Shown one piece after another: positions 1-13,920 of a DNA stretch of 64,000 bases. Origin of the DNA: an uncultured Chloroflexia bacterium (GTDB lineage Bacteria; Chloroflexota; Anaerolineae; JAAYZQ01); assembly GCA_963700285.1 (NCBI GenBank), contig CAVOXA010000015.1:64001-128000 (forward strand). Direction: 5' to 3'. The translations under genes were made by a program, and so were the position numbers. The notes beneath the pieces were generated by a model. It saw nothing but the letters and a program-made list of their open reading frames with translations. It was not told where the DNA came from and ran no database searches. Within the stretch, counting starts at the first letter, position 1; each line of letters opens with the position of its first letter.

Positions 1-832
1 AGCCCGCCACGGCAGAGGAGCTGGCGCAGATCGCAGCCGCTGCTGGCCGCCGACTGGCTGGCCGGCGAGGGGCTGGAGGGCCAGGTGGTGGGCTATGCCA
101 TCGGAGAACCTGGTCCCGCGCCACCTGGACCGCGTGCGCGAGGCGCCGCGAGGAGCAGATCGACAAGACCCTGGCCGCCGTGCACGAGCGCCTGACCAAA
201 GAGATCAACTACTGGGACCGCCAGGCCGACCGATGCTGCGCGAGCAGGAGAAGGCCGGCAAGGCCAACGCCGCGCTCAACGCGCCCGGGCCCAGCAGCGC
301 GCCGACGAACTGGCCGCCCGCCTGGAGCGGCGCACCCGGGAGCTGGACCTGGAGCGGCAGATCTCGGCCACACCGCCGGTGGTGATCGGCGGAGCCGTCG
401 TGATCCCGATCGGGCTGCTGCTGGGTGAGCGCACGCCGCCGGAGCTGATCGACACGGCGCATCACCGAGGCCATCGCCATGCAGGCCGTGATGCAGGCCG
501 AGACCGACCTGGGCAACCACCCCCGCGATGTGAGCAAGGACAACCTGGGCTACGACATCGAGAGCCTCGACCCGCGGACCGGCCGGCTGCGCTTCATCGA
601 GGTCAAGGGCCGGCGCGCTGGGGCCGAGACGGTGACCGTCACCCGCAACGAGATCCTGACCGGTATCAACAGCCCGGAGCAGTACATCCTGGCCATCGTC
701 GAGGTGGAAGACGGACAAGCCCAAGAGCCGCGCTACGTGCAGCAACCTTTCGGCAAGGAACCGGATTTCGGGGTGACCAGTGTGAACTATGAGCTGGGCG
801 AGCTGCTGGCGCGGAGCACGGTGGCGACGTGA
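1..832 (+). CDS. C-terminal part of SNF2-family helicase with DUF3883 (NOV_C) nuclease-like domain; 5' end lies outside the window; frameshifted
   Basis: Fragments [11 protein letters not shown] and [11 protein letters not shown], then [25 protein letters not shown] (DUF3883 pattern). Lies upstream of DUF1156 and DUF499 genes. Confidence 0.8.
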
Positions 833-842
833 TTTCCTACCC

Positions 843-922
843 CGTCATCGCGAGGAGCGTCAGCGACGAAGCGATCCCCAGTTGCGCAATTGGAGACCAC
901 TTCGCTGGCACTCGCGATGACG
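843..922. repeat. Palindromic CGTC-type REP-like element, copy 1
   Basis: Perfect 12-bp terminal inverted repeat CGTCATCGCGAG...CTCGCGATGACG, with internal GAGCGTCAGCGACGAAGCGATCCCC shared with the copies at 4627 and 5146. Confidence 0.85.
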
Positions 923-959
923 ACTTTGCCATAGTGCTGAGCACCCCTACTTGATCCGC

Positions 960-988
960 TGGACAAGGCTCTAAAACTATAGTACAAT
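960..988 (+). promoter_or_regulatory. Putative sigma70 promoter of the toxin-antitoxin pair
   Basis: TGGACA-17 bp-TACAAT. Confidence 0.5.
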
Positions 989-1042
989 GCATGGTAGAAT
1001 ATGTATTACAGTTCATAGCGCATCTTTGTAAGCGAGGTGACC

Positions 1043-1324
1043 ATGCAGAAGATCATTGGCGTGACCGAACTACAGCGCCGCTTCCGCTCTATTTTCGACG
1101 AGGTGGCCAAGGAGCGCGTCCCCTACGTCCTGACCCGGGGCAGCCGGCCCGAAGCAGCGCTCATCCCCTACGACGAGTACTTGCGCTTCGAGGCACTGAG
1201 GGAGCAGGACCTGTTGGCCCGTTTTGACCAATTGGTGGCCCGGATGGCGGAACAAAGCGCGGCTATCAGCGAGGAAGAGGTGGCCGCCGACGTGGCCGCC
1301 GCCCGGGCTGAACTGGCGAACTGA
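1043..1324 (+). CDS. Type II antitoxin, Phd/YefM family
   Basis: IGVTELQRRFRSIFDEV...YVLTRGSRPEAALI; RBS GAGGTG; TGATG overlap with the toxin gene. Confidence 0.85.
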   Translation: MQKIIGVTELQRRFRSIFDEVAKERVPYVLTRGSRPEAALIPYDEYLRFEALREQDLLARFDQLVARMAEQSAAISEEEVAADVAAARAELAN

Positions 1325-1749
1325 TGCGGGCCGTCGTCGACACCAACGTCCTGGTGCGGTCCGTCATCCGGCCTCAGGGCACGGTGGGCCCGGTGCTGCT
1401 GCGCCTCCGCCATGGCGAGTACACCCTGCTCTATGCCCGCTCGCTCCTGGAAGAACTGATCGACGTCCTCAACCGGCCGCGTATTCGCCAAAAGTACGGC
1501 CTGTCCGGCCAGGATATCCAGACCATCCTCGGCCTTATACTCCTGCGCGGGGAGGAGGTCACACCAGTGGAGTGCATCACGGCTTGCCGTGACCCCAAGG
1601 ACGACAAGTTCCTGGAAGTGGCCGTGGCCGGCCGGGCCGACGCCATCGTCAGTGGAGACCAGGATCTGCTGGTGCTGCATCCCTATGAAGGCATCCCCAT
1701 CATCCCACCGCGCCTTTTCCTGCGGATGCTGGATCAGCAGGAGCAGTGA
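1324..1749 (+). CDS. PIN-domain toxin (VapC-like, PIN_3)
   Basis: VVDTNVLV...[12 protein letters not shown]...IVSGDQDLL. Confidence 0.9.
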
Positions 1750-1768
1750 TACAACAAAGGAAAACTGC

Positions 1769-4600
1769 ATGACCTACCGCAAAAAACTGATCGAAGTCGC
1801 CCTGCCCCTGGAAGCCATCAACGAGGCCAGCGCCCGCGAGAAATCCATCCGCCACGGCCACCCCAGCACGCTGCACCTGTGGTGGGCGCGCCGGCCCCTG
1901 GCCGCCTGCCGCGCCGTGATCTTCACCTCGCTGGTGGACGACCCCGACGACCCCGACGCCCCGCCCGAGTTCGTCGAGGCCTGCCGCAAGCTGCCGCGGG
2001 GCAAGAACGCCGCCGAGAACGACACGCCGCGCCAGCGCCTGTTCGACTTCATCGAGACGCCTGGTCCAGTGGGAGAGCACCACCGACGAGCAGGTGCTGG
2101 AGACCGCCCGCGAGCTGATCCGGCTGGCGACGGACGGCAACCCGCCGCCGCTGCTGGACCCCTTTGCCGGGGGCGGCAGCATCCCGCTGGAGGCGCAGCG
2201 CCTGGGGCTGGAGGCCCACGCCAGCGACCTGAACCCGGTGGCGGTGATGATCAACAAGGCGCTGATCGAGATCCCGCCCAAGTTTGCCGAACATGCCGCC
2301 GGTGAACCCCCGCGACCGGGAGAAGATGGGCAGCGGCACGCGGCTGGAAGGGCGCGGCAGGCCTGGCCGCCGACGTGCGCTACTACGGCGAGTGGATGCG
2401 CGACCGCGCCTGGGAGCGCATTGGGCACTCTGTACCCGAGACTGCAACGGCGAGACGGTGATCGCCTGGCTGTGGGCGCGCACGGTGAAGTGCCCCAACC
2501 CGGCCTGCGGCGCGCAGATGCCGCTGGTGCAGCTCCTTTGACTGAGCAAGAAGAAAGGGCAGACGGGCGTGGGTGGAACCGCATGATCGACCAGACCGCC
2601 AAGACCGTGCGTTTACGTGGTCAAGACAGGGCAAGGGCAAAGCGCCCAGAAGGCACCCAAAGTGGGCCGTGGTGCGAAGTTCCGCTGTCTGGTGTGCGGC
2701 GACCGGTGCCCTATGACCACATCGCGAGACGAGAGGCGAATAGCTGGAGCGCATGGGAGCGCCAGTTGATGGCGATTGTGACCGAGGGCAGCAAGTCGGA
2801 CGCAGCTACTACGCAGCCGACACCCGAACACGAGCAGATTGCCGCAAGCGCAATACCAGCATGGCACCCGGACCAAGCTGGCCAAGACGCCTGCGGATTT
2901 CGTGTCCAGATGTATGGCATGACCAGACATCGCTGACCTCTTCACCCCACGCCAGCTCGTCGCCCTGACCACCTTCAGCGATCTGGTGGCCGAGGCCCGC
3001 GAGCAAATCCACGCCGACGCCGTTGCAGCCGGCCTGCCCGATGACGACGTTCCCTTGCGCGAGGGCGGCGCCGGCGCCCGGGCCTACGCCGAGGCAGTGA
3101 GTGTGTATCTTGGCGTTTGCTGTGGATCAGCAGTGCAGACTACTGGTCAATGCTCTGGCCAGTTGGGGCAACGAGATTCATCGTGCAAGCACTTTTGCAC
3201 GACAGGCACTGCCAATGATTTGGGATTATGCTGAGGCAAATCCATTTAGCTGATTCGACGGGGAACTGGCTTGGCAGCCATCGACTGGATTGCAAGAGCG
3301 CTTGAGATGTCTGCATGCCACGGTCGACGGGATATGCAGTATCAAGCGTGATGCCACGCAACTCGAGTTCTGACAGGCAGTTCGTTATATCAACCGATCC
3401 ACCGTACTACGACAATATCGGCTATGCGGATCTATCTGACTTCTTCTATGTTTGGCTGCGTCGAAGTCTGCAGGATGTCTATCCAGACATCTTCAGCACT
3501 TGCTGGTTCCAAAAGAACCGGAACTGATTGCCTCTCCGTATCGCTTCGGCGGCGACAGAGACGCAGCAAATGAGCATTTCGAGACAGGGCTTGACGAAGC
3601 TTTTCGCAGATATGCGCAGATCATGCTCAGCCGAGACTATCCCTTGACGGTCTACTATGCATTCAAGCAGTCCGAAGATCGATACGCTGAAGGAAGGACA
3701 CGTGCAGCAGTACTGGCTGGGAAACGATGCTGAAGGGCTTAATTCGAGCCGGGTTTTCAATCATTGGTACTGGCCAATGCGCACCGAGAGACTCGGGCGC
3801 ATCATGGAGCATTGGCACAAATGCTCTCGCCTCCTCCATTGTCCTGGTCTGCCGCCCGCGCCCTGACGACGCGCCGATGACCTCCCGCCGCGAGTTCGTC
3901 AACGCCCTGCGCCGCGAACTGCCCGCTGCCCTGCGCGAGATGCAGTCGGGCAACATCGCCCCGGTCGACCTGGCCCAGGCCACCATCGGCCCCGGCATGG
4001 CCGTCTACAGCCGCTACAGCAAGGTGCTGGAGCCCAACGGCGACCGGCTCACCGTGCGCACCGCCCTGCAGCTCATCAACCACGAGCTGGACGCCTACCT
4101 GGCCGAGCAGGAGGGCGACATCGACGCGGACTCGCGCTTTGCCGTGGCCTGGTTCGAGCAGTTCGGCTTCCAGCGAAGGCCCCTTCGGCCAGGCCGACGT
4201 GCTGGCCCGGGCCAAGAACACCAGCGTCGACGGCCTGGCCCACGCCGGCGTGCTGCGACTCGGGGGCGGGCAAGGTGCAGCTTCTACCGCTGGTCGGAGC
4301 TGGACCCCGGCTGGGACCCAGCCACGGACAGGCGCCTCACCGTCTGGGAGGCCGTCCACCACCTGATCGAGCGGCTCAACGTCCACGGCGAGGAGGGCGC
4401 GGCCATGCTGCTGGCCAAGATGCCCTCCGACCTGGCGGCCGAGGCGCGGCAGCTCGCCTACCGGCTCTACAGCATCTGCGAGCGCAAGGGCTGGGCCGAG
4501 CACGCCCGGGACTACAACGCGCTGGTCATCTCCTGGGGCGCCAGCCAGGAGCAGGCGCGGGAGTTCAAGGAGCAGTACCAGCAGGGGAGGCTGTCTCTAA
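1769..4600 (+). CDS. DUF1156 adenine-specific DNA methyltransferase; multiple frameshifts, end approximate
   Basis: [10 protein letters not shown]...[14 protein letters not shown]; motif [16 protein letters not shown]; motif [27 protein letters not shown]; C-terminal [17 protein letters not shown]. Confidence 0.85.
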
Positions 4601-4775
4601 CGTCATTGCGAGCGGAGGCTTCCAGACGTCATTGCGAGGAGCGTCAGCGACGAAGCAATCCCCAACTACTCCAGTGGAGACTGCTTCGGCCCCAAAGCGG
4701 GCCTCGCAGTGACAGGATCGATGGGGACCCAGGACATGCTCGGGACAGGCTGTCACTGCGTTCCTCGCGATGACA
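4601..4775. repeat. Cluster of CGTC-type palindromic repeats: half copy at 4601, full copy 4627-4713, contracted copy 4751-4775
   Basis: CGTCATTGCGAG at 4601 and 4627; CTCGCAGTGAC at 4703; TGTCACTGCG-TTC-CTCGCGATGACA at 4751. Confidence 0.8.
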
Positions 4776-4792
4776 GGCGTGAGAGGGGGCTG

Positions 4793-5080
4793 GTGACCAA
4801 GCAGTATTTTGTGTACATCATGACCAACAAGCACAACCGGGTGCTGTATACCGGCGTGACCAATGATCTCAGGAGACGGGCATACGAGCATCGGACCGGG
4901 CGCGGGGGTGGGTTCACGAGCCGGTACAATGCGACGAAACTGGTGTACTACGAGGTCTGTGAGGATCCGCGATCTGCCATCGCCAGAGAGAAGCAGATCA
5001 AGGCGGGCTCCAGGCAGAAGAAGCTGGACCTGATCGAAGGGATGAATCCGGAGTGGGAAGATCTGTATCCCGGTCTGTAG
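4793..5080 (+). CDS. Small GIY-YIG nuclease (UPF0213-like)
   Basis: YFVYIMTN-VLYTGVTNDLRRRAYEH-FTSRY-AIAREKQIK-NPEWEDL; GTG start after GAGAGGGGG. Confidence 0.9.
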   Translation: MTKQYFVYIMTNKHNRVLYTGVTNDLRRRAYEHRTGRGGGFTSRYNATKLVYYEVCEDPRSAIAREKQIKAGSRQKKLDLIEGMNPEWEDLYPGL

Positions 5081-5145
5081 GGCAGGATCTCTTCGAGAAT
5101 CAGCAGCGGCAGTTCGCCCGAGCGAGCCTCGAAATCACAAGGCAC

Positions 5146-5227
5146 CTGTCACTGCGAGCGCTAGCGAAGCAGTCTCCAGCTACATAGTTGGGGATCGCTT
5201 CGTCGCTGGCGCTCCTCGCGATGACAG
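5146..5227. repeat. CGTC-type palindromic element, inverted relative to the 843 and 4627 copies
   Basis: Reverse complement reads CTGTCATCGCGAGGAGCGCCAGCGACGAAGCGATCCCC...GGAGACTGCTTCG...CTCGCAGTGACAG. Confidence 0.85.
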
Positions 5228-5243
5228 GCTGGGAGGGAGTTAG

Positions 5244-8200
5244 ATGGCACTCAGCAACAGAGAACGGGTCGGACGGATCCTGGAGGCACTGAAAGAGGGC
5301 CTGGGGCCTTTCATCATGCGCGAGTACCGCCAGCGCTATACCGCAAACGACTATACCAACGAGATGGACATGGTCCTAAGCACCGGAGCCTACCCGGGCC
5401 TTCCCGATGATGCCTGGTCCGACGATGCCGCCCTGCTGGCGGCGCTGGACACCCACGCCTGCCTGCACCTGATGTGGCGGCGCTGGAACGAGGTCTTCCA
5501 GGACAAGCTGGGCCACGTGGGCCGCTCCTACGTCAGCGAGATGATCGAGGCCCGCAACAACTGGGCGCACCAGAGCGCCTTCTCCAACGACGAGGCCTAT
5601 CGCGTCGCCGACACCGCCGCCCGCCTGCTCAAGATGGTCAGCGCCGCGCCGGAAGCGGCCCGCGTCGACGAGATCGGCCGCGAGCTGCTGCGCCAGCGCT
5701 TCGAGGCCGAGGCCGAGAAGGCAAGAAAGGAGACCGTCGTCCAGGCCGAGACGCAGATCACCACGCCTGGCCGGGCTCAAGCCCTGGCGCGAGGTGGTCC
5801 AGCCCCATCCCGACGTGGCCAGCGGGCGCTACATCCAGGCCGAGTTCGCCGCCGACCTCTCCCAGGTGCTGGCCGGCACCGCCGAGGCCGGAGTACCAGG
5901 ACCCGCTCGAGTTCTTCCGCCGCACCTACCTCACCGAGGGCCTGCTGGCCCTGCTGGTGACCGGCGTCAAGCGCCTCACCGCCCAGGGCGGCGACCCGGT
6001 GGTCCAGCTCCAGACCGCCTTTGGCGGCGGCAAGACCCACAGCATGCTGGCCCTCTACCACCTCTGCGGCGGCAAGATCCGGCTGGGCGATTTCCCCGGC
6101 GGCGAGCGGATGGCCGCAGAGATCGGCGACGTCGACCTGCCGGAGGCCAACATCGCCGTGCTGGTCGGCACGGCCCTCGACCCGTCCCGGCCGCGCGAGT
6201 ACCCCGACGCCACCGTCCACACCCTGTGGGGCGAGACTGGCCTACCAGCTCGGCGGGCGCGAAGGGCTACCAGATGGTCGAGCAGGCCGACCTCAAGGGC
6301 GTCAGCCCCGGCTCCAACACCCTGCAGCGAGCTGCTCTTCCAATTCGGCCCGTGCCTGATCATCATCGACGAACTGGTGGCCTACGCCCGCAACCTGTAC
6401 AGCGTGGAGCGGCTGCCGGCCGGCTCCTTCGAGTCGATCATGACCTTCATGCAGTCGCTCACCGAGGCGGTCAAGCGCTCGGACGAGTCGATGCTGCTCG
6501 ATCTCGCTGCCCGAGTCGGACATCGAGATCGGCGGCGAGGCGGGGCGCGCCGTGCTGGAGACCCTCTCCCACGTCGTCGGACGCATCGAGTCGGTCTGGA
6601 AGCCGGTCACCGCCACCGAGAGCTTTGAGATCGTGCGCCGCCGCCTGTTCGCCACCGAGGTCGACTATGCCGCCCGCGACGCCGTCGTCAACGCCTTTGG
6701 CGACATGTACCGCAACGCCGCCGGCGAGTTCCCCTCCGGCGTGGCCGAGCGGGACTATCTGGACCGGATGCAGCGCCGCCTATCCCATCCACCCCGAGCT
6801 GTTCGACCGGCTCTACCAGGACTGGTCCACCCTGGAGCGCTTCCAGCGCACCCGCGGCGTGCTGCGGCTGATGGCCGCCGTCATCCACCAGCTCTGGACG
6901 CGGGGCGATCCAGTCGCTGCTGATCATGCCCGGCACGCTGCCGCTGGACACCACGCCCGGTGCGCAACGAGCTGCTGCGCTACCTGCCCGATACCTGGGC
7001 TGCCGTCTTCGACACCGACATCGACGGGCCAGAATCGCGCCCCTTTGCCATCGACGGCCACGTGCCCGGCCCTGGGCAAGCTACAGCGCGGCCCGGCGCG
7101 TGGCGCGCACCATCTTCGTCGGCAGCGCGCCCTCGGTGGCCGAGCAGCGCGTCCGCGGCCTGGAAGAGATCCGCATCCGCCTGGGCTGCGCCCAACCCGG
7201 CGAGCCGGCCGCCGTCTTTGGCGATGCCCTGCGCCGCATGAGCGGCCAGCTCACCTACCTCTACACCGACGGCAGCCGCTACTGGTACGACACCCGGCCC
7301 ACCGTCAACAAGCTGGCCCGCGACCGCGCCCAGAGCTATCGCCAAGAAGAGGTGGACGCCGAGATCGTGGACCGGCTGCGAGCTGTGCCCAAGAACCGGG
7401 ACTTTGCCGCCTTTCACGTTGCCCCGCCCGAAACCTCCGACGTGGTGGACGAGGATCGGGCCAGGGTCGTCGTCCTGCATCCCGAATTCACCCACAAGCG
7501 CACGACCGGCGAGACAGAGGCGGTGCAAGCAGGCCCGGCGCTTCCTGGAGAGCCGCGGGAACGCGCAGCGCCTCTACAAGAACATGCTGATCTTCATCGC
7601 CGCCGACGAGAACGACGCCGAGGCCCTGCAACTCGGCTGTCCGCGATTTTCTGGCCTGGCGGTCCATCCACGATGAGCGCGACGAACTGAACCTGGACGC
7701 CCAGCAGCGCCGGCAGGTGACGACCAGCCTGGAAAAGGCCGATGAGACGGTGGATCTGCGGCTCCGGGCGGCCTATAGCTGGCTGCTGGTGCCGGTCCAG
7801 CCGGAGCCGCTGGGACCCATCGAGTTCCAGGCCAGCCGCATCAGCGGCGACGACAACTTTTACGACCGGGCCGCCCGCCGGCTGCGCAACGACGGCCTGC
7901 TGATCTACGAGTGGTCGCCCGACATCCTGCGCATGGAGCTGGACCGCTACATCTGGAGCGAGGAGCGCGGCTGGGAGGTCGGGCTGAAGCAGCTCTGGGA
8001 ATACCTGGCCCAGTACTGCTACCTGCCGCGCCTGTTCGACCAGCGAGGTGCTGGTCAACGCCGTCAGGGACGGCGTGGGCCGCCTGGACGCGCCCTTCGC
8101 CTACGCCACGGGCAAGAGCGAAGAGGGCTACCACACCGGGGTCGTACTCCGCAGCCTGGGTACCGTCTACTTTGACGACCGGAGCCTGCTGGTCCATCCG

Positions 8201-8553
8201 GATCACGTGGTCGAGCCACCCGAGGTCAAGCCTGTCGTCGGAGCCTGGCCAGGGTACGGACGGTCCCTGGCCCAGGCAGAACGCCACCAGTGCACGAACC
8301 CGAGCCCCGAGAGAAAGTGATGACCCGCTACTACGGCCGCGTCGCCATCGACCCCCAGCGCGCGAACCAGGACATGGGTCTCATCGTCGAGGAGGTGGTC
8401 GAGCGCCTTACCAGCCAGCTTGGCTGCGAGGTCGAGATCAGCGTCGAGATCGAGGCCAAGCGGCCGGACGGCTTTGAGGAGAGCACCATCCGCACCGTCA
8501 GCGAGAACAGCCGCACGCTCAAGTTTGAGGGTTTTGGCTTTGAGGAGCGGTAG
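5244..8553 (+). CDS. DUF499 AAA+ ATPase with N-terminal Swt1-like HEPN domain; frameshifted
   Basis: HEPN Rx4H (ARNNWAHQ); EFAADL; [11 protein letters not shown]; Walker [13 protein letters not shown]; Walker [11 protein letters not shown]; [12 protein letters not shown]; C-terminal [12 protein letters not shown]. Confidence 0.85.
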
Positions 8554-8625
8554 ACCAAGCTCCCCTACGCGCCAGCTATCAGCAAAGATCGTGCATTCCT
8601 CCAGTCAGCAAGGAGCGAGTGGTTC

Positions 8626-9681
8626 GTGATAAAGCAGTCTGTATGCCCTGAATGCGAAGCATTGAATCGATGGCAGAACCTGTACTGCACGCGTTGCGGT
8701 GCGTCCATGCACGGCGCGGTCATTGTCCAGGAAGCCTCCAAATCCACAGAGGAGGATACTCCCCGGATGCGCGTACCGGGCTGGTTAAAATGGCTGCTTC
8801 TGGGGCTGCTATTGCCAGTTGTGTTTATCGCAGGCTCCCGCTTGTTAGATCAGGGGGTACTCACCGGTTCCTCGGAACCACCCCGTCCCATGGCACTTGA
8901 TCCCACCCATTTACTCTGTGGCATCTCCATCGTTTTGGTCTTTGCCATCCCCCTACTTCTGATTGTCCTGCTTCTGCCTCCTTTGCTGCACAGAGATCGA
9001 CTCAATCAGCGCGCCCAGCGCGACTACCGCGAAGCAAGGGGTACTTACCACCTGAACCAGCTCCGGCAGTCGCTCACATCTCTGGACGCCAAGTTGGAAA
9101 AGCTTGGGCAGCAAGAATCGCAGTTGAATGCAAAAATCCACTCATTGCATCAGCAGCGTCAGCAAGAGCTTCTGCGCGCCCTGAATCGCCACGTTGCACA
9201 AGCTTACCTGACCGACATTGACGGGATCGGGCCCAAACTGCGCGACCGTATCCTGCAGGAGTGCTTTTCTGGAACGCTCGACAGTCTGTTGGTGGCCTAC
9301 TGTGTACAAGGCGTTGGAGAAAAGCGAGCGCTAGATATCCGCGTCTGGGTCCAAAAGTGGAAGCAGCAACTGCCAGAGCTTGCCATGACAGACTTCCCAG
9401 GCAAAAGGAGAATTGTGGCCAGCTACGAACAGAAGCTGCAGGCTAGCAGGGGTACACTGGAGTCTGTCCAGAAAAAGTCCCGCTCGCTGCAACGCCTCAG
9501 GAAACTGGCTGTGGCCGAGCAAGAGCGCCTGGCAGGTGTGACAGTGTCACATTTCAGGCAAGCCTACAACCGGAACTCGGATAGCTCCGAAGTCATTGAT
9601 CACTACTTGCAAGGCGTCTTTGCAGAGTGGGCGCCGATGCCCGCATGGTTCAAGCAACTGATTGGGGAGTTTGGAGGCTGA
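8626..9681 (+). CDS. Hypothetical membrane protein: zinc ribbon, 2 TM helices, coiled coil, tandem helix-hairpin-helix
   Basis: CPEC..YCTRCG; two hydrophobic stretches; DIDGIGPKLRDRI and VQGVGEKRALDI. Confidence 0.7.
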   Translation: MIKQSVCPECEALNRWQNLYCTRCGASMHGAVIVQEASKSTEEDTPRMRVPGWLKWLLLGLLLPVVFIAGSRLLDQGVLTGSSEPPRPMALDPTHLLCGISIVLVFAIPLLLIVLLLPPLLHRDRLNQRAQRDYREARGTYHLNQLRQSLTSLDAKLEKLGQQESQLNAKIHSLHQQRQQELLRALNRHVAQAYLTDIDGIGPKLRDRILQECFSGTLDSLLVAYCVQGVGEKRALDIRVWVQKWKQQLPELAMTDFPGKRRIVASYEQKLQASRGTLESVQKKSRSLQRLRKLAVAEQERLAGVTVSHFRQAYNRNSDSSEVIDHYLQGVFAEWAPMPAWFKQLIGEFGG

Positions 9682-9682
9682 T

Positions 9683-12181
9683 ATGCTGAGCGGTTTGCGC
9701 AACCGTTTCCGCAGGGTGCGGGTACAGGATCTACTGCTCGAATTCACCCTTGACCTCGACAAAGAAGACAAACATGTCGCAAAGGTCTACTCGATGGTAG
9801 ACGGACAACGGGAGCAGGTCACCGATATCCGTGGCTTGTGGAGCTACGGGTTCACGTTGGAGCATCCGACCGGACAGTACTCCATCAGCAGGGAGACCTG
9901 TGAGACGCTACTTGCCATGCGCTCCCTGAATCCCAACATCCAGCCGGATGGTAGCATGGTCTTTGATGTCTGTCCACCCGTGCTCCGCTACCTGAGGACT
10001 CGGGCCGCCATCGATGAAGCACTGACATCCAAAGAGTTAGAGATCGCAGAGAAACCACTGGAGCCAGCCTCTTTGGTAGACTTTGAACCCGGGAAGGGCC
10101 TCAAGGTCCGGTCCGGATTCCGCCAAGACGGAAAAGGTGACTTCATCGCCCGGGACAAGCTCGAGCTCACACCCGACAAAGGTTATGTACGAACTGGCAA
10201 ATGCTTCTATCCTGTGGACCAGAACCTCAATCCCAAGATCAAGGAATGGATAGACAGAGTAGTCACGAATGTACCGCTCGATCGTATCCCAGAGTTCTTC
10301 AAGAGGGATCTCGTCCTTCTCAAGACTCAAATGAGTGCGGTGCTGACAGAGAGAGCGAACAGCATCCAAATCATCGATTCCCAGTTCTCACCGCGCGTGC
10401 GTGTCGAGTCGGACGAGCCAGGCTGGCTGGACTTTCAGGTGGACTATGTTGTGGGTGACTACGAACTGCCTGCTGACCTGATTCGCAGGGCAAAGCAAGA
10501 ATACGTCCAGCCTGATGACCACACATGGGTCAGCTTGGACAGCCAAACCATTGCAGATACCGAGAAGCGCCTCCGCGAGTTGGGGGCACAACCGATCGCC
10601 GGAGGATTTCGTGTGCCGGTAACCCAGTTTGCATCCCTTGAGGAGTTTATTGAACAGATTGGGGGAATTCGCGAGGTCTCCGCAGACTATGCCCGTTTCC
10701 TCGAGCAAATCACGGACTTTCAGGCCGACGAGCACTTCCGGCTGCCAGCTGAGGTCGAGATCCGTTTGGTCTCCAGTGGCATTAACCTCCGCCCCTACCA
10801 GCGAGCCGGCATTCACTGGCTGAACTGGCTGGTCACGCATCATCTCCATGGTGTTCTTGCCGACGATATGGGCCTTGGAAAGACCATCCAGACCATCGCC
10901 ACTATGGCTCAGCGCTATCGGGACGAAGATGCTGCACAACATAGTCTTGTTGTCTGTCCCAAGTCGGTGGTGCACTTCTGGGCTCGCGAGATACAGCGCT
11001 GCATTCCCAACGCGCTGGTCTACGAATATGTGGGCCCGTCGCGGAGCCGTGACCTGTGGAAGGCTGCCAAACCTATCATCTTCATCAGTACCTATGAGAC
11101 TGTGGCCCGTGACATAGGGCTCATCCAGCCAGTCCCTTTCTTTTTCTTGGTCTTGGATGAAGCCACCAAAATCAAGAATCCGAATACGCAGCGGACGAAA
11201 GCTATCAAGCATCTAAATTCAGTACACAGGGTTGCCCTAAGTGGCACACCCATCGAGAATCGCCCCGCAGAGCTGTGGTCACTCTTTGATTTCCTCATGA
11301 AGGGGCATCTAGGAACCTATGGCAAGTTCATTCGCCTGTTTGAGAACCCCATCACGTCTGGTGACGATCGTGCGGCCCAACGACTCTCAAGGCGCATCCG
11401 GCCCTTTGTCCTCCGGCGACTGAAAGGACAGGTTGCAAAAGACCTCCCGGAAAAGATCGAGATGGACATCTGGTGCGAACTGACAAACGAGCAGAAATCC
11501 CTCTATGGCCAGATTCAGGATACCTACGCCGACCCCGTCCGCCAAGCGTTGGACGGAGGAGAGCAGGTGAGCTATGCTACCAGCATCCTTCCGGTGTTGA
11601 CCAAGCTGAAGCAGGTGTGTGACCATCCCGCTCTGATCACCGGGGAAGTGAACCCCGTCGATGGCCGATCGGAAAAGCTAGACAGGGTTGTCAGGAAGGT
11701 CGAAGAAGTGAAGGGGCAAGGCGAACACATTGTACTCTTTAGTCATTTTCTTGCCACCCTGGACCTTCTCGAGATCGCATTCAAGCAAAGAGGTATCACC
11801 TACATCCGCCTCGATGGATCGACTGGGAATCGGCAGCAGCTCATCGATCATTTCAACAGGTCTCGGGTCGATGCTGCGCTCTGCAGCATTCAGGCGGTTG
11901 GTCACGGCATCAGTTTAACGGCAGCCAACCACGTCATCCATATTGACCGGTGGTGGAACCCTGCCGTCGAAGACCAGGCCACAGACCGCGTTCACCGCAT
12001 CGGTCAAGATAGGACAGTCTACGTGTACAGGGTACTCGTCGCTGGAACACTGGAGGAAAAGATAGCGCTCCTCTTGGAAAAGAAGCGAAACATCTCGGAT
12101 AGGATTGTAGGCGCTGCGGTCGGACAGGAAATGCGCTGGACCAGGGACGAGCTATTGGAACTCCTGAAGCCCCTGGAATAG
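9683..12181 (+). CDS. SNF2-family helicase/ATPase with uncharacterised N-terminal region
   Basis: LRPYQ, LADDMGLGKT, DEATKIKN, LSGTPIEN, LKQVCDHP, WWNPAVEDQATDRVHRIGQ; RBS GGAGG. Confidence 0.9.
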   Translation: MLSGLRNRFRRVRVQDLLLEFTLDLDKEDKHVAKVYSMVDGQREQVTDIRGLWSYGFTLEHPTGQYSISRETCETLLAMRSLNPNIQPDGSMVFDVCPPVLRYLRTRAAIDEALTSKELEIAEKPLEPASLVDFEPGKGLKVRSGFRQDGKGDFIARDKLELTPDKGYVRTGKCFYPVDQNLNPKIKEWIDRVVTNVPLDRIPEFFKRDLVLLKTQMSAVLTERANSIQIIDSQFSPRVRVESDEPGWLDFQVDYVVGDYELPADLIRRAKQEYVQPDDHTWVSLDSQTIADTEKRLRELGAQPIAGGFRVPVTQFASLEEFIEQIGGIREVSADYARFLEQITDFQADEHFRLPAEVEIRLVSSGINLRPYQRAGIHWLNWLVTHHLHGVLADDMGLGKTIQTIATMAQRYRDEDAAQHSLVVCPKSVVHFWAREIQRCIPNALVYEYVGPSRSRDLWKAAKPIIFISTYETVARDIGLIQPVPFFFLVLDEATKIKNPNTQRTKAIKHLNSVHRVALSGTPIENRPAELWSLFDFLMKGHLGTYGKFIRLFENPITSGDDRAAQRLSRRIRPFVLRRLKGQVAKDLPEKIEMDIWCELTNEQKSLYGQIQDTYADPVRQALDGGEQVSYATSILPVLTKLKQVCDHPALITGEVNPVDGRSEKLDRVVRKVEEVKGQGEHIVLFSHFLATLDLLEIAFKQRGITYIRLDGSTGNRQQLIDHFNRSRVDAALCSIQAVGHGISLTAANHVIHIDRWWNPAVEDQATDRVHRIGQDRTVYVYRVLVAGTLEEKIALLLEKKRNISDRIVGAAVGQEMRWTRDELLELLKPLE

Positions 12182-12457: not shown

Positions 12458-13636
12458 ATGCCCCTCGAGCCCTACAGACACATACCCTATCCCTCTCTCC
12501 ACGACCTCTCCGGCAAGTTCCCACCCGTCGACTGGCTCTGGCCCTCCTGGATCCCCCGCGGCATGCTCACCCTCTTCGGCGCCTCCCCCGGCGTGGGCAA
12601 ATCCTTCGTCGCCCTCGACCTCGCCCGCCGCATCATCCACGGCCAGCCCTTTCCCGATGGCGCTCCCGCGCCCAGCCCCGGCGCCGATGTGCTCATCGTC
12701 GATGCCGAGGGCGCACCCGCTCTCCTCAACCAGCGCGCCCAGGCCTGGGGCATCGACAGCAGCCGTCTCTACCTCATGTTGTCGCCCGATCGTACGGGCT
12801 TCATTGACCTCGTCCAGCCAGGACAAATTCGCCTGCTCACCCTCATGATCAACGAAATCCGTCCCGCTCTCATAGTCGTCGACTCCCTGGCCGCCGCCAC
12901 CAGCCGCGGCGAGACCAGCCTCCAGAGCGCTCGCGACATCCTCGGCGGCCTCTCCACGCTCGCCAGGGTGTTCAACACGGCCATCCTCGTCATCCACCAC
13001 CTGCGCAAGCGTACCCGCTCAGGAGCCGCCGCCCCATCTCCCCAGGTCTCCATCGACGACCTCCGCGGCTCCTCCCACCTAAGCGCCGCCGCCCGCTCCG
13101 TCCTAGCCCTAAGTCTATCCCGAGCCCCTGAGGGACCTGCCGAACGCTCTCCCTCTTTCCCAATCTCCCCCTCTCCCCATCACGAGTCCCCCTCTCTCCC
13201 CATCTCCCCCTCTCCCTCTCGCGGGTCCCCCCCTCTCCCCCTCTCTCCATCTCCCCCTCAGCCTGTCACTCGCCGCCTCGAAGTAGTAAAAACCAACCTC
13301 TGCCGCCACCCGCCTCCCCTCGCCCTGCGCTTCGAAGGTGAAGGCGTAGCCGTTCCCACGCTACACTATTCAGAATGGGTAGAACCGCCTCCTCCGCCCA
13401 CCCAGCTCGACCTTTGCGCCCGGTGGCTCATCGACTACCTCGCCGACGCCGATTCCCCCGTCAAGCCCGCCGACGTCGTCCGCGCCGCCGTGGAACAGGG
13501 CTTCTCCCGTCCAACCCTCTACCGCGCCCGCCAGGCCCTTGCCGGCAAGGTCATAGACCTCGGCAACAGCCCTCACGACCCCAACAAGCGCTGGACCCTC
13601 GTCCCTCCGTCTCCAGATCAGGATGCCCATAACTGA
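12458..13636 (+). CDS. AAA_25 (RecA/RepA-helicase-like) ATPase with C-terminal winged-helix-like region
   Basis: VDWLWPSWIPRGMLTLFGASPGVGKS, IVVDSL, LVIHHLRK, LRGSS, LEVVKTNL, GFSRPTLYRAR; RBS AAGGAG. Confidence 0.8.
   Translation: MPLEPYRHIPYPSLHDLSGKFPPVDWLWPSWIPRGMLTLFGASPGVGKSFVALDLARRIIHGQPFPDGAPAPSPGADVLIVDAEGAPALLNQRAQAWGIDSSRLYLMLSPDRTGFIDLVQPGQIRLLTLMINEIRPALIVVDSLAAATSRGETSLQSARDILGGLSTLARVFNTAILVIHHLRKRTRSGAAAPSPQVSIDDLRGSSHLSAAARSVLALSLSRAPEGPAERSPSFPISPSPHHESPSLPISPSPSRGSPPLPLSPSPPQPVTRRLEVVKTNLCRHPPPLALRFEGEGVAVPTLHYSEWVEPPPPPTQLDLCARWLIDYLADADSPVKPADVVRAAVEQGFSRPTLYRARQALAGKVIDLGNSPHDPNKRWTLVPPSPDQDAHN
13148..13264 (+). repeat. Three imperfect in-frame 39-bp pyrimidine-rich tandem repeats
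   Basis: Encode SPSFPISPSPHHE / SPSLPISPSPSRG / SPPLPLSPSPPQP. Confidence 0.75.
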
Positions 13637-13827: not shown

Positions 13828-13920
13828 CGTCATTCCCGCATGCTTTTGGCGGGAATCCACGCCACCAGCAACCGCCACGTCCGCAGAGTGGATGCCCGCT
13901 AGAACCATGCGGGCATGACA
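13828..13920. repeat. Second family of CGTC-type palindromic element (GTCATTCCCGC type)
   Basis: CGTCATTCCCGC-ATGCTTTTG-GCGGGAATCCAC...GTGGATGCCCGC...GCGGGCATGACA: two hairpins in inverted arrangement. Confidence 0.75.

Follow-up and report, generated by a model that had tools for sequence, protein, structure and literature searches.

A single gene for a 95-residue GIY-YIG protein lies between inverted copies of a palindromic repeat, and the whole unit sits at the junction of two genes of a bacterial operon. This arrangement raises the question of whether the nuclease and the repeat belong together and, if they do, whether the enzyme acts on the repeat, spreads it, or both. The first-pass annotation of this stretch of DNA (64,000 nucleotides, hereafter the window) had put the unit forward as a candidate for an uncharacterised system. 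That view does not hold, because sequence comparison places the window nuclease in a branch of the Ssn family, which was published in 2025 (Chenal et al., 2025; PMC11893778), and the analogy with REP elements had already been drawn in the same paper. The Ssn family and the repeat-gene-repeat layout are therefore already known; what appears to be new is the repeat found here, termed type B, and its pairing with the nuclease. The reading that we favor, with a probability of about 0.7, is that an Ssn-type nuclease binds its own hairpin in single-stranded DNA and cuts beside it, and that the cassette is REP/RAYT-like, having undergone rare relocation followed by vertical inheritance.

Organization of the Cassette and Its Host Operon

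PADLOC matches to HmaA, HmaB and HmaC identify the host operon as Hma, which has been filed as type-1 BREX-related (PMC12839542). The helicase-nuclease HmaA is represented by its C-terminus with a NOV_C domain (479–832, + strand; Pfam and PADLOC). The DUF1156 adenine methylase HmaB (1769–4600, +; PF06634, PADLOC matches at three segments) is the gene upstream of the cassette, and the HEPN_Swt1-fused, DUF499-type ATPase HmaC (5244–8553, +; PF18731, PADLOC matches at two segments, and ORFs) is the gene downstream. HmaB has many frameshifts in this assembly, with 4270–4597 matching the C-terminus of the model, and HmaC is also frameshifted, its 3′ end being taken from the ORF list; the frameshifts that break the Hma genes in window 1–8553 are most likely assembly indel errors. 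The cassette had been described as starting right after the inferred methylase stop. As assembled, the TAA at 4598–4600 is one base out of the methylase frame, which continues to 4773, but the two closest homologues end in Leu-Phe-stop at this point. The inferred stop is therefore probably correct, and the surplus base is probably an assembly indel. A Phd/YefM antitoxin and PIN toxin pair (1043–1749) is inserted between hmaA and hmaB, directly behind the repeat dimer at 843–922, and genes for an SNF2 helicase (9662–12181) and an AAA_25 ATPase (12458–13636) lie downstream of the operon.

Each repeat copy of about 80 nt is an inverted pair of 27–36-nt monomers with the YGTC tags outermost. The outer left end of the cassette is a truncated monomer (4601–4626, +) reduced to its tag and 5′ arm, and full-length monomers of its sub-family occur elsewhere in the genome. 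The left dimer (4627–4714; supported by pattern, fold and stem analysis) is composed of a monomer at 4628–4661 (+), with the stem ATTGC/GCAAT and a GCGNNAGC inner hairpin, and a monomer at 4678–4713 (−), with the stem ACTGC/GCAGT. A fragment of a second, different dispersed repeat (4725–4750), for which blastn gives 15 further genome matches at E ≤ 0.01, adjoins a collapsed dimer (4750–4776; fold z −3.0), whose sequence consists of two tags and 5′ arms without the middle; its ends are like those of the right dimer, and it stops 16 nt upstream of the nuclease start codon. The outer right end is formed by the right dimer (5146–5227; pattern, fold and alignment), with monomers at 5148–5175 (+; ACTGC/GCAGT) and 5192–5225 (−; ATCGC/GCGAT). 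Its last base lies 16 nt before the ATPase ATG at 5244.

Most of this layout had been recognized in the first-pass annotation and is borne out here: the lone gene between the copy at 4627–4713 and the inverted copy at 5146–5227 by Pfam and alignments, the partial copies at 4601 and 4751 by the sequence itself, and the right-hand boundary by the positions just given. The dispersed copy reported at 843–922 is likewise real; it is a gene-less dimer directly after the HmaA stop (alignment, pattern and fold), with a monomer at 844–876 (+; ATCGC/GCGAT) and a degenerate partner. Positions 843–904 and 4627–4688 are direct copies with 84% identity, 4628–4688 is 85% complementary to 5165–5225, and 835–921 is 80% complementary to 5148–5234. 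The three units of about 80 nt, folded as DNA, have z scores of −3.2 to −4.5.

No target duplication is evident in the sequence at the cassette ends, and the cassette does not combine a target-site duplication with a transposase in the unit, as a DDE insertion sequence or MITE would. The published SRM pattern has no match in window 1–9000, Rfam gives no match at E ≤ 1 in 700–5400, and neither a sigma-70 promoter nor an intrinsic terminator was found in 4500–5300. Farther along the window, an inverted pair of SRM-matching (type A) hairpins is present at 13828–13920 (contig C15 of the host assembly, 77828–77920).

Affiliation of the Nuclease

The gene (4793–5080, +) is a 95-aa ORF with a GTG start, and GIY-YIG (PF01541, E 4e-19) is its only Pfam match. 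It therefore has the size and architecture of Ssn proteins, which are single-domain GIY-YIG proteins of less than 150 aa. In a blastp comparison in which the N. gonorrhoeae orthologue stood in for N. meningitidis SsnA, 44 of 86 residues were identical (51%; E 2e-24 for a database of 2 Mb), which is within the homology cut of the Ssn paper (E < 1e-10 and at least 75% cover); the same is true of all 80 of the closest homologues. The SsnA catalytic residues Y6, Y17 and E64, which had been mutated in the Ssn study, correspond to Y8, Y19 and E66, which are invariant across an alignment of 80 sequences, and the AlphaFold2 model of the protein has a pLDDT of 95. No PADLOC or NCBIfam family scores above its cut-off for this protein.

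The host assembly, which is 89% complete, contains three GIY-YIG matches in total and one copy of the branch to which the window nuclease belongs. A second Ssn paralogue (contig C9, 72100–72650, with the gene at 72274–72552) is 47% identical and has the Neisseria-type motif; a canonical NTS-like hairpin is located downstream of it and two degenerate hairpins upstream, and the SRM pattern does match there.

Structure and Copy Number of the Type B Repeat

The type B consensus is GTC-ATTGC-GA…GAA-GCAAT-C, that is, a GTC, the first arm of a 5-bp stem whose sequence is ATTGC/GCAAT or varies from it, a GA bulge, an inner hairpin, a GAA (or GTG or GCG) bulge, the other arm and a C. The inner hairpin is often GCGN(N)AGC. 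All complete monomers keep the oriented grammar of Ssn repeats, with GTC before the stem and C after it. The pattern matches 103 times in the 7.05-Mb host genome, as compared with 4 and 2 matches in two 3.5-Mb order-2 Markov simulations. Together with the fold scores of the dimers, this count, which had been proposed as a check, indicates that the repeat is not due to chance.

Among 92 monomer matches in the genome, 75 have a complementary stem, which occurs in four versions (ATT/AAT, 53; ACT/AGT, 12; ATC/GAT, 8; GTT/AAC, 2). Because eight of the ten complete dimers join two different stems, selection appears to act on the monomer, and the long dimer hairpin is disfavored as the selected structure. 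When folded alone with standard parameters, the monomer is no better than its shuffles (z 0.04), so that the case for the bulged structure is built on covariation and on what is known of mini-hairpins: GCGNAGC or GCGNNAGC folds into a DNA mini-hairpin of very high stability that contains a sheared G-A pair (PMC13037366). Of 201 monomers, 69 contain GCGN(1–2)AGC, whereas shuffled sequences give 3.9 and the reverse complement gives 1; this strand bias fits a single-stranded DNA target.

A scan of 300 genomes of the host's class detected the strict type B pattern in 113 of them, in up to 507 copies each, whereas the control gave 0. A classified type B gene was recognized in 17 genomes, and each of these has 6 or more repeat copies. 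Against the favored reading, the repeats are more numerous than the genes: of the 30 genomes with at least 50 copies, which are drafts and may miss the gene, only 9 have a classified type B gene and 15 have any nuclease match. The host genome also contains 29 monomers of a third type, type C, and no type C nuclease is found among the three GIY-YIG matches of its 89%-complete assembly.

Pairing of Nuclease Branch and Repeat Type

The hairpin accompanies the close relatives of the nuclease across many bacterial phyla. In the best 80 of 581 confirmed genome loci, type B occurs within 500 bp of the gene in 61, on both sides in 43, and the SRM pattern in none. Enrichment decreases with distance, with 179 type B matches in 77 kb near the gene and 11 in 132 kb farther out. 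For the relatives of the paralogue, the best 80 of 586 metagenome loci give the opposite result, with SRM at 69 and type B at none. These two sets stem from two queries and two collections; like the samples described next, they are query-biased, and kin among them are not independent.

A further comparison is provided by the protein motifs of 187 loci, which include 13 proteins without any of three motifs. Type B is present in 60 of the 68 loci with K[AGS]G[SPF]R (abbreviated xGSR), the motif whose K[AGS]GSR form marks the branch of the window nuclease, in 59 alone and in 1 with type A, the other 8 having no repeat. Type C, which has the stem AT[CT]CT, is found in 9 of 10 loci with IKGWxR (GWxR). 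Of the 96 loci with KWxRxWK, 80 have type A, the fully paired repeat, and the remaining 16 have none. In a second sample, the best 29 of 64 matches in the 300 genomes of the host's class, type B goes with xGSR in 17 of 17 and type C with GWxR in 6 of 8. A quick tree of 147 rows and 97 columns, from which 40 type A metagenome rows were left out and in which little else is resolved, separates an 84-row B/C clade from the Neisseria type (SH-aLRT 96). A further stem variant (ATTTC/GAAAT) occurs in two loci (L245 and L246) beside proteins with yet another motif.

Judged from these associations, the nuclease and its repeat are a real cognate pair; both the flanking enrichment (61 of 80) and the co-variation of repeat type with the protein are strong, as the earlier claim of a nuclease-hairpin system would lead one to expect. 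The stretch at about residues 69–77 tracks the repeat type and is likely to be the specificity region. It may be asked whether the protein is instead a structure-specific repair nuclease of the Slx1/UPF0213 kind that lies next to the repeats by coincidence. The solved structures nearest to it are in fact UPF0213 BH0048 (1zg2), Slx1 and UvrC, but these matches are weak (sequence E 1e-5, 30% identity) in comparison with the 51% identity to SsnA. Since the repeat type follows the protein branch in two samples and the enrichment falls off with distance, coincidence is contradicted, and we consider this explanation extremely improbable.

Type B and type C repeats explain why many homologues look repeat-less under the published SRM pattern. 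Planktothrix paucivesiculata PCC 9631 is listed in Supplementary Data 4 of the Ssn paper as positive for homology and for cd10448 with an SRM enrichment of 0.79, i.e., without enrichment (PMC11893778), and its protein falls in the B/C clade and is accompanied by type C repeats. No description of the type B/C pairing was found in a text search of the openly accessible literature. GTCATTGCG and GAAGCAATC were likewise not found in a text search that covered 13 of the 14 supplementary files of the Ssn paper (PMC11893778), and a text search for GTCATTGCGAG returned only unrelated papers. Queries for cd10448 or for SsnA with GIY-YIG led to the Ssn paper alone, and SsnB with Neisseria terms to none. 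The peer-review file of that paper does mention an earlier SsnA/B/C split, which a reviewer doubted and which does not appear in the abstract, introduction, results or discussion of the final paper (PMC11893778).

Movement and Inheritance of the Cassette

At 69 repeat-flanked loci the cassette has diverse neighbors. Among the 127 neighboring proteins, 7 (at 6 of the 69 loci) belong to defense or toxin-antitoxin Pfam families and 2 are transposases. Cassettes split several conserved gene pairs, among them cas4-cas1 and DUF58-BatA; for the other pairs, the names are those that we take their Pfam families to denote. Both the nuclease gene and the repeat are missing from all 28 homologous ATPase loci, including the 14 that cover the entire junction, and in homologues the hmaB-hmaC junction holds different cargo. 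The diverse neighbors, the split pairs and the 28 loci without the cassette together indicate that the cassette has moved. Individual loci include related cassettes between cas4 and cas1 (L021) and between sufB and sufC (L213, NC_016623.1).

The earlier suggestion that empty sites might be found proved fruitless for the window's own locus, for which no empty site at the nucleotide level exists among the 28 ATPase loci or 4 family-level methylase loci; the closest homologues have other cargo there. Nor do four sediment runs contain a joint that skips the cassette, although with low-depth contigs and small word shares they carry no weight either way. It was more productive at a site between Peptidase_M24 and FAD_binding_3 genes in relatives of Sulfuricella. 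Both flanks were recovered in 15 of 30 loci there, of which 6 (including the reference) are filled and 9 empty, and each of the two well-supported host clades contains alleles of both kinds. In two empty alleles (L283 and L284, from genomes G349 and G351), about 10 bases from the end of the right repeat are retained and provide the stop codon of one host gene and the start codon of the other, which overlap; these remnants are likely to be deletion scars. Across clades, protein changes amount to 5–7 of 94 residues in the nuclease, against 54–66 of 400 and 65–75 of about 320 in the flanks. The overall identity of the nuclease gene, which is higher than that of its flanks, gave a hint of homing or recent horizontal spread, but this was rejected because four-fold synonymous divergence, measured at about 33 sites of one locus, is equal (0.36–0.47 for the nuclease and 0.31–0.48 for the flanks). 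The pattern is that expected of a cassette which has long been resident, kept by purifying selection and subject to losses, in the manner described for RAYTs, rather than of recent homing. A viral origin was also discarded: only 7 loci per query occur in viral contigs, and type B lies at 1 of 7 for the window protein.

These results bear on the possibility that the cassette is an autonomous minimal transposon, which would be actively spreading through excision or copying, by the nuclease, of whole cassettes as well as of gene-less dimers. Such an element would agree with the outermost tags pointing inward in 30 of the 52 loci that have repeats on both sides, with two Anabaena cassettes that are 90% identical at different loci, with 19 of 19 close relatives in which no repeat head follows the same tRNA-synthetase gene, with the 17 of 17 genomes mentioned above, and with the report of CGTC repeats without a dedicated transposase (PMC3733652). 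The Anabaena tRNA-synthetase locus was rejected as a clean empty site, because its downstream region is too variable. Against active transposition stand the one branch copy in the host genome, a synonymous divergence of the nuclease not below that of its flanks, which argues against recent transfer or homing, and cassette ends without an evident target duplication. GIY-YIG chemistry is, moreover, hydrolytic, and is not known to include a strand-transfer step.

The repeat also has a second route of spread in the host genome. Of 90 strict monomers, 22 are near the termini of an unrelated DDE-transposase insertion sequence, a 1.3-kb element with DDE_Tnp_1 and DDE_Tnp_1_assoc domains in three near-identical copies (one at contig C1, 1208259–1209558), and 68 are elsewhere. 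MITEs of 141–186 bp that carry a type B dimer have the same termini, several with target duplications of about 10 bp (C1:565375, 887455, 944476, 1369450 and 1767038; C4:114134; C22:277917). At C5:163814–165077, an ORF with Cys clusters like those of an Fe-S protein lies between two such MITE ends, which are in turn bracketed by an 11-bp duplication; the whole is possibly a composite transposon. In view of the single gene copy, the apparently vertical inheritance at one site and the 22 of 90 repeats beside the ends of DDE elements, we regard self-mobilisation as unlikely. The evidence points instead to a RAYT-like, mostly sedentary enzyme with hitch-hiking of its repeats in DDE MITEs. Of the earlier proposal, the cognate pairing and the occurrence at unrelated loci thus stand, but spreading by the nuclease is weakened by the single copy, the neighbor-like synonymous divergence and the repeats in MITEs.

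A different account of why the gene is kept would make it a domesticated single-stranded DNA restriction enzyme, like N. meningitidis SsnA, that cuts hairpin-bearing incoming or exposed single strands and limits recombination; the nuclease may then occupy an accessory slot of the Hma/BREX-related operon, with repeats spreading mainly by other means. This account is compatible with the enzymology that we favor and differs in the reason for retention. It is consistent with the 5-fold increase in transformation on SsnA knockout (PMC11893778), a protein that is strongly conserved at a fixed site, the variable cargo at the hmaB-hmaC junction, the 22 monomers near DDE_Tnp_1 termini, several of them in MITEs, and a related cassette between an MmeI-type gene and the DISARM gene drmA (L208, NZ_LR882964.1). 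However, defense or toxin-antitoxin families make up only 7 of the 127 neighbors, the 28 ATPase loci have neither the gene nor the repeat, PADLOC has no match for the nuclease, and 68 of the 90 monomers are away from insertion-sequence termini. Restriction as the main function is accordingly a conceivable but somewhat doubtful explanation.

A Proposed Model for Nuclease Action

In the reading that we prefer, a cognate Ssn-type enzyme acting on its own hairpin, the nuclease would probably bind a flanking monomer in single-stranded DNA, the substrate presumably being GTC-[5-bp stem]-GA-[inner hairpin]-GAA-[stem]-C and not the long dimer hairpin. Cleavage of single-stranded DNA by the window nuclease is probable in view of the hairpin-directed cleavage that four Ssn homologues carry out (PMC11893778). 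The cut is predicted to precede the GTC tag, on its 5′ side, by a few bases: on NTS75, SsnA gives a 20-nt product, which corresponds to 5 nt before the G (PMC11893778). Extrapolated from this product, the top strand would be cut near 4622/4623 and the bottom strand near 5230/5231, in each case immediately beyond the cassette. The gene and its hairpins would form a cassette that relocates rarely to unrelated sites and is then inherited vertically. Most repeat copies may have spread by nicking and host repair, and some in the host genome by DDE-driven movement of MITEs.

Site-specific endonucleases for single-stranded DNA have been described only among Ssn proteins, and the four of these that were tested all have fully paired targets; a large branch with a bulged target would therefore widen the available set of single-strand cutters. 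Because the host genome has both hairpin types, it offers a ready-made comparison of orthogonality. The branch also bears on the question, raised in 2013 and 2025, of what spreads CGTC-tagged repeats. More tentatively, the motif near residues 69–77 could be a readable code for a fully paired (type A) versus a G/A-bulged mini-hairpin target (types B and C), and the B/C branch the missing driver of a very abundant repeat class to which the SRM pattern is blind. If this were true, orthogonal single-strand cutters of fewer than 100 aa would coexist in one cell, and repeats would spread by a transposase-free route.

Comparison with Known Systems

The Hma system, with its helicase-nuclease, DUF1156 methylase and HEPN-fused ATPase, is the host operon, and the cassette is not part of its core; the term GIY-YIG does not occur in the main text of the Hma paper (PMC12839542). 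The closer likenesses are to repeat-associated enzymes. As in REP/REPIN-RAYT systems (PMC5581495; PMC3733652), a gene that is single-copy in the host genome lies between inverted dimers and many dimers are gene-less. Some of the 300 genomes of the host's class have up to 5 nuclease matches. Vertical inheritance with losses, seen at one tested site, is also reported for RAYTs (PMC5581495). The window enzyme differs from RAYTs in being a GIY-YIG protein, by its sole Pfam match, and not an HUH/Y1 enzyme, with no strand-transfer activity known, and the tag is YGTC (CGTC or TGTC) rather than GTAG. CGTC REP families 1–4 (Di Nocera et al., 2013; PMC3733652) share with type B the CGTC/TGTC tag, the inverted dimers, the AT at stem positions 1–2 and the CC-type tail; their stems are described in that text as 8–9 bp with 4–5-nt loops, whereas the type B stem is 5 bp and bulged. 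Variant loops are noted there as well, and type B may overlap with one of the listed variants.

The closest relationship is to Ssn, whose members are single-domain GIY-YIG proteins flanked by hairpins and cutting single-stranded DNA 5′ of the hairpin; the Ssn paper reports repeat-gene-repeat layouts, notes the likeness to IS200/IS605-type transposases and REPs, and proposes an origin from mobile elements (PMC11893778). Like SsnA (CDD cd10448), the window protein is a single domain of about 95 aa with the three catalytic residues and the family-level similarity, and like the NTS and SRM repeats, YGTC-tagged hairpins ending in C flank the gene and are dispersed in the genome. The SRM pattern flanks 71% of Ssn homologues, and all substrates in the oligonucleotide table have a fully paired stem (PMC11893778). 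In contrast, the window nuclease is in a branch separate from the Neisseria type, and its repeat combines a 5-bp stem with GA and GAA bulges. Because it does not match the published SRM pattern, type B is best filed as a variant of the Ssn system rather than as a plain member.
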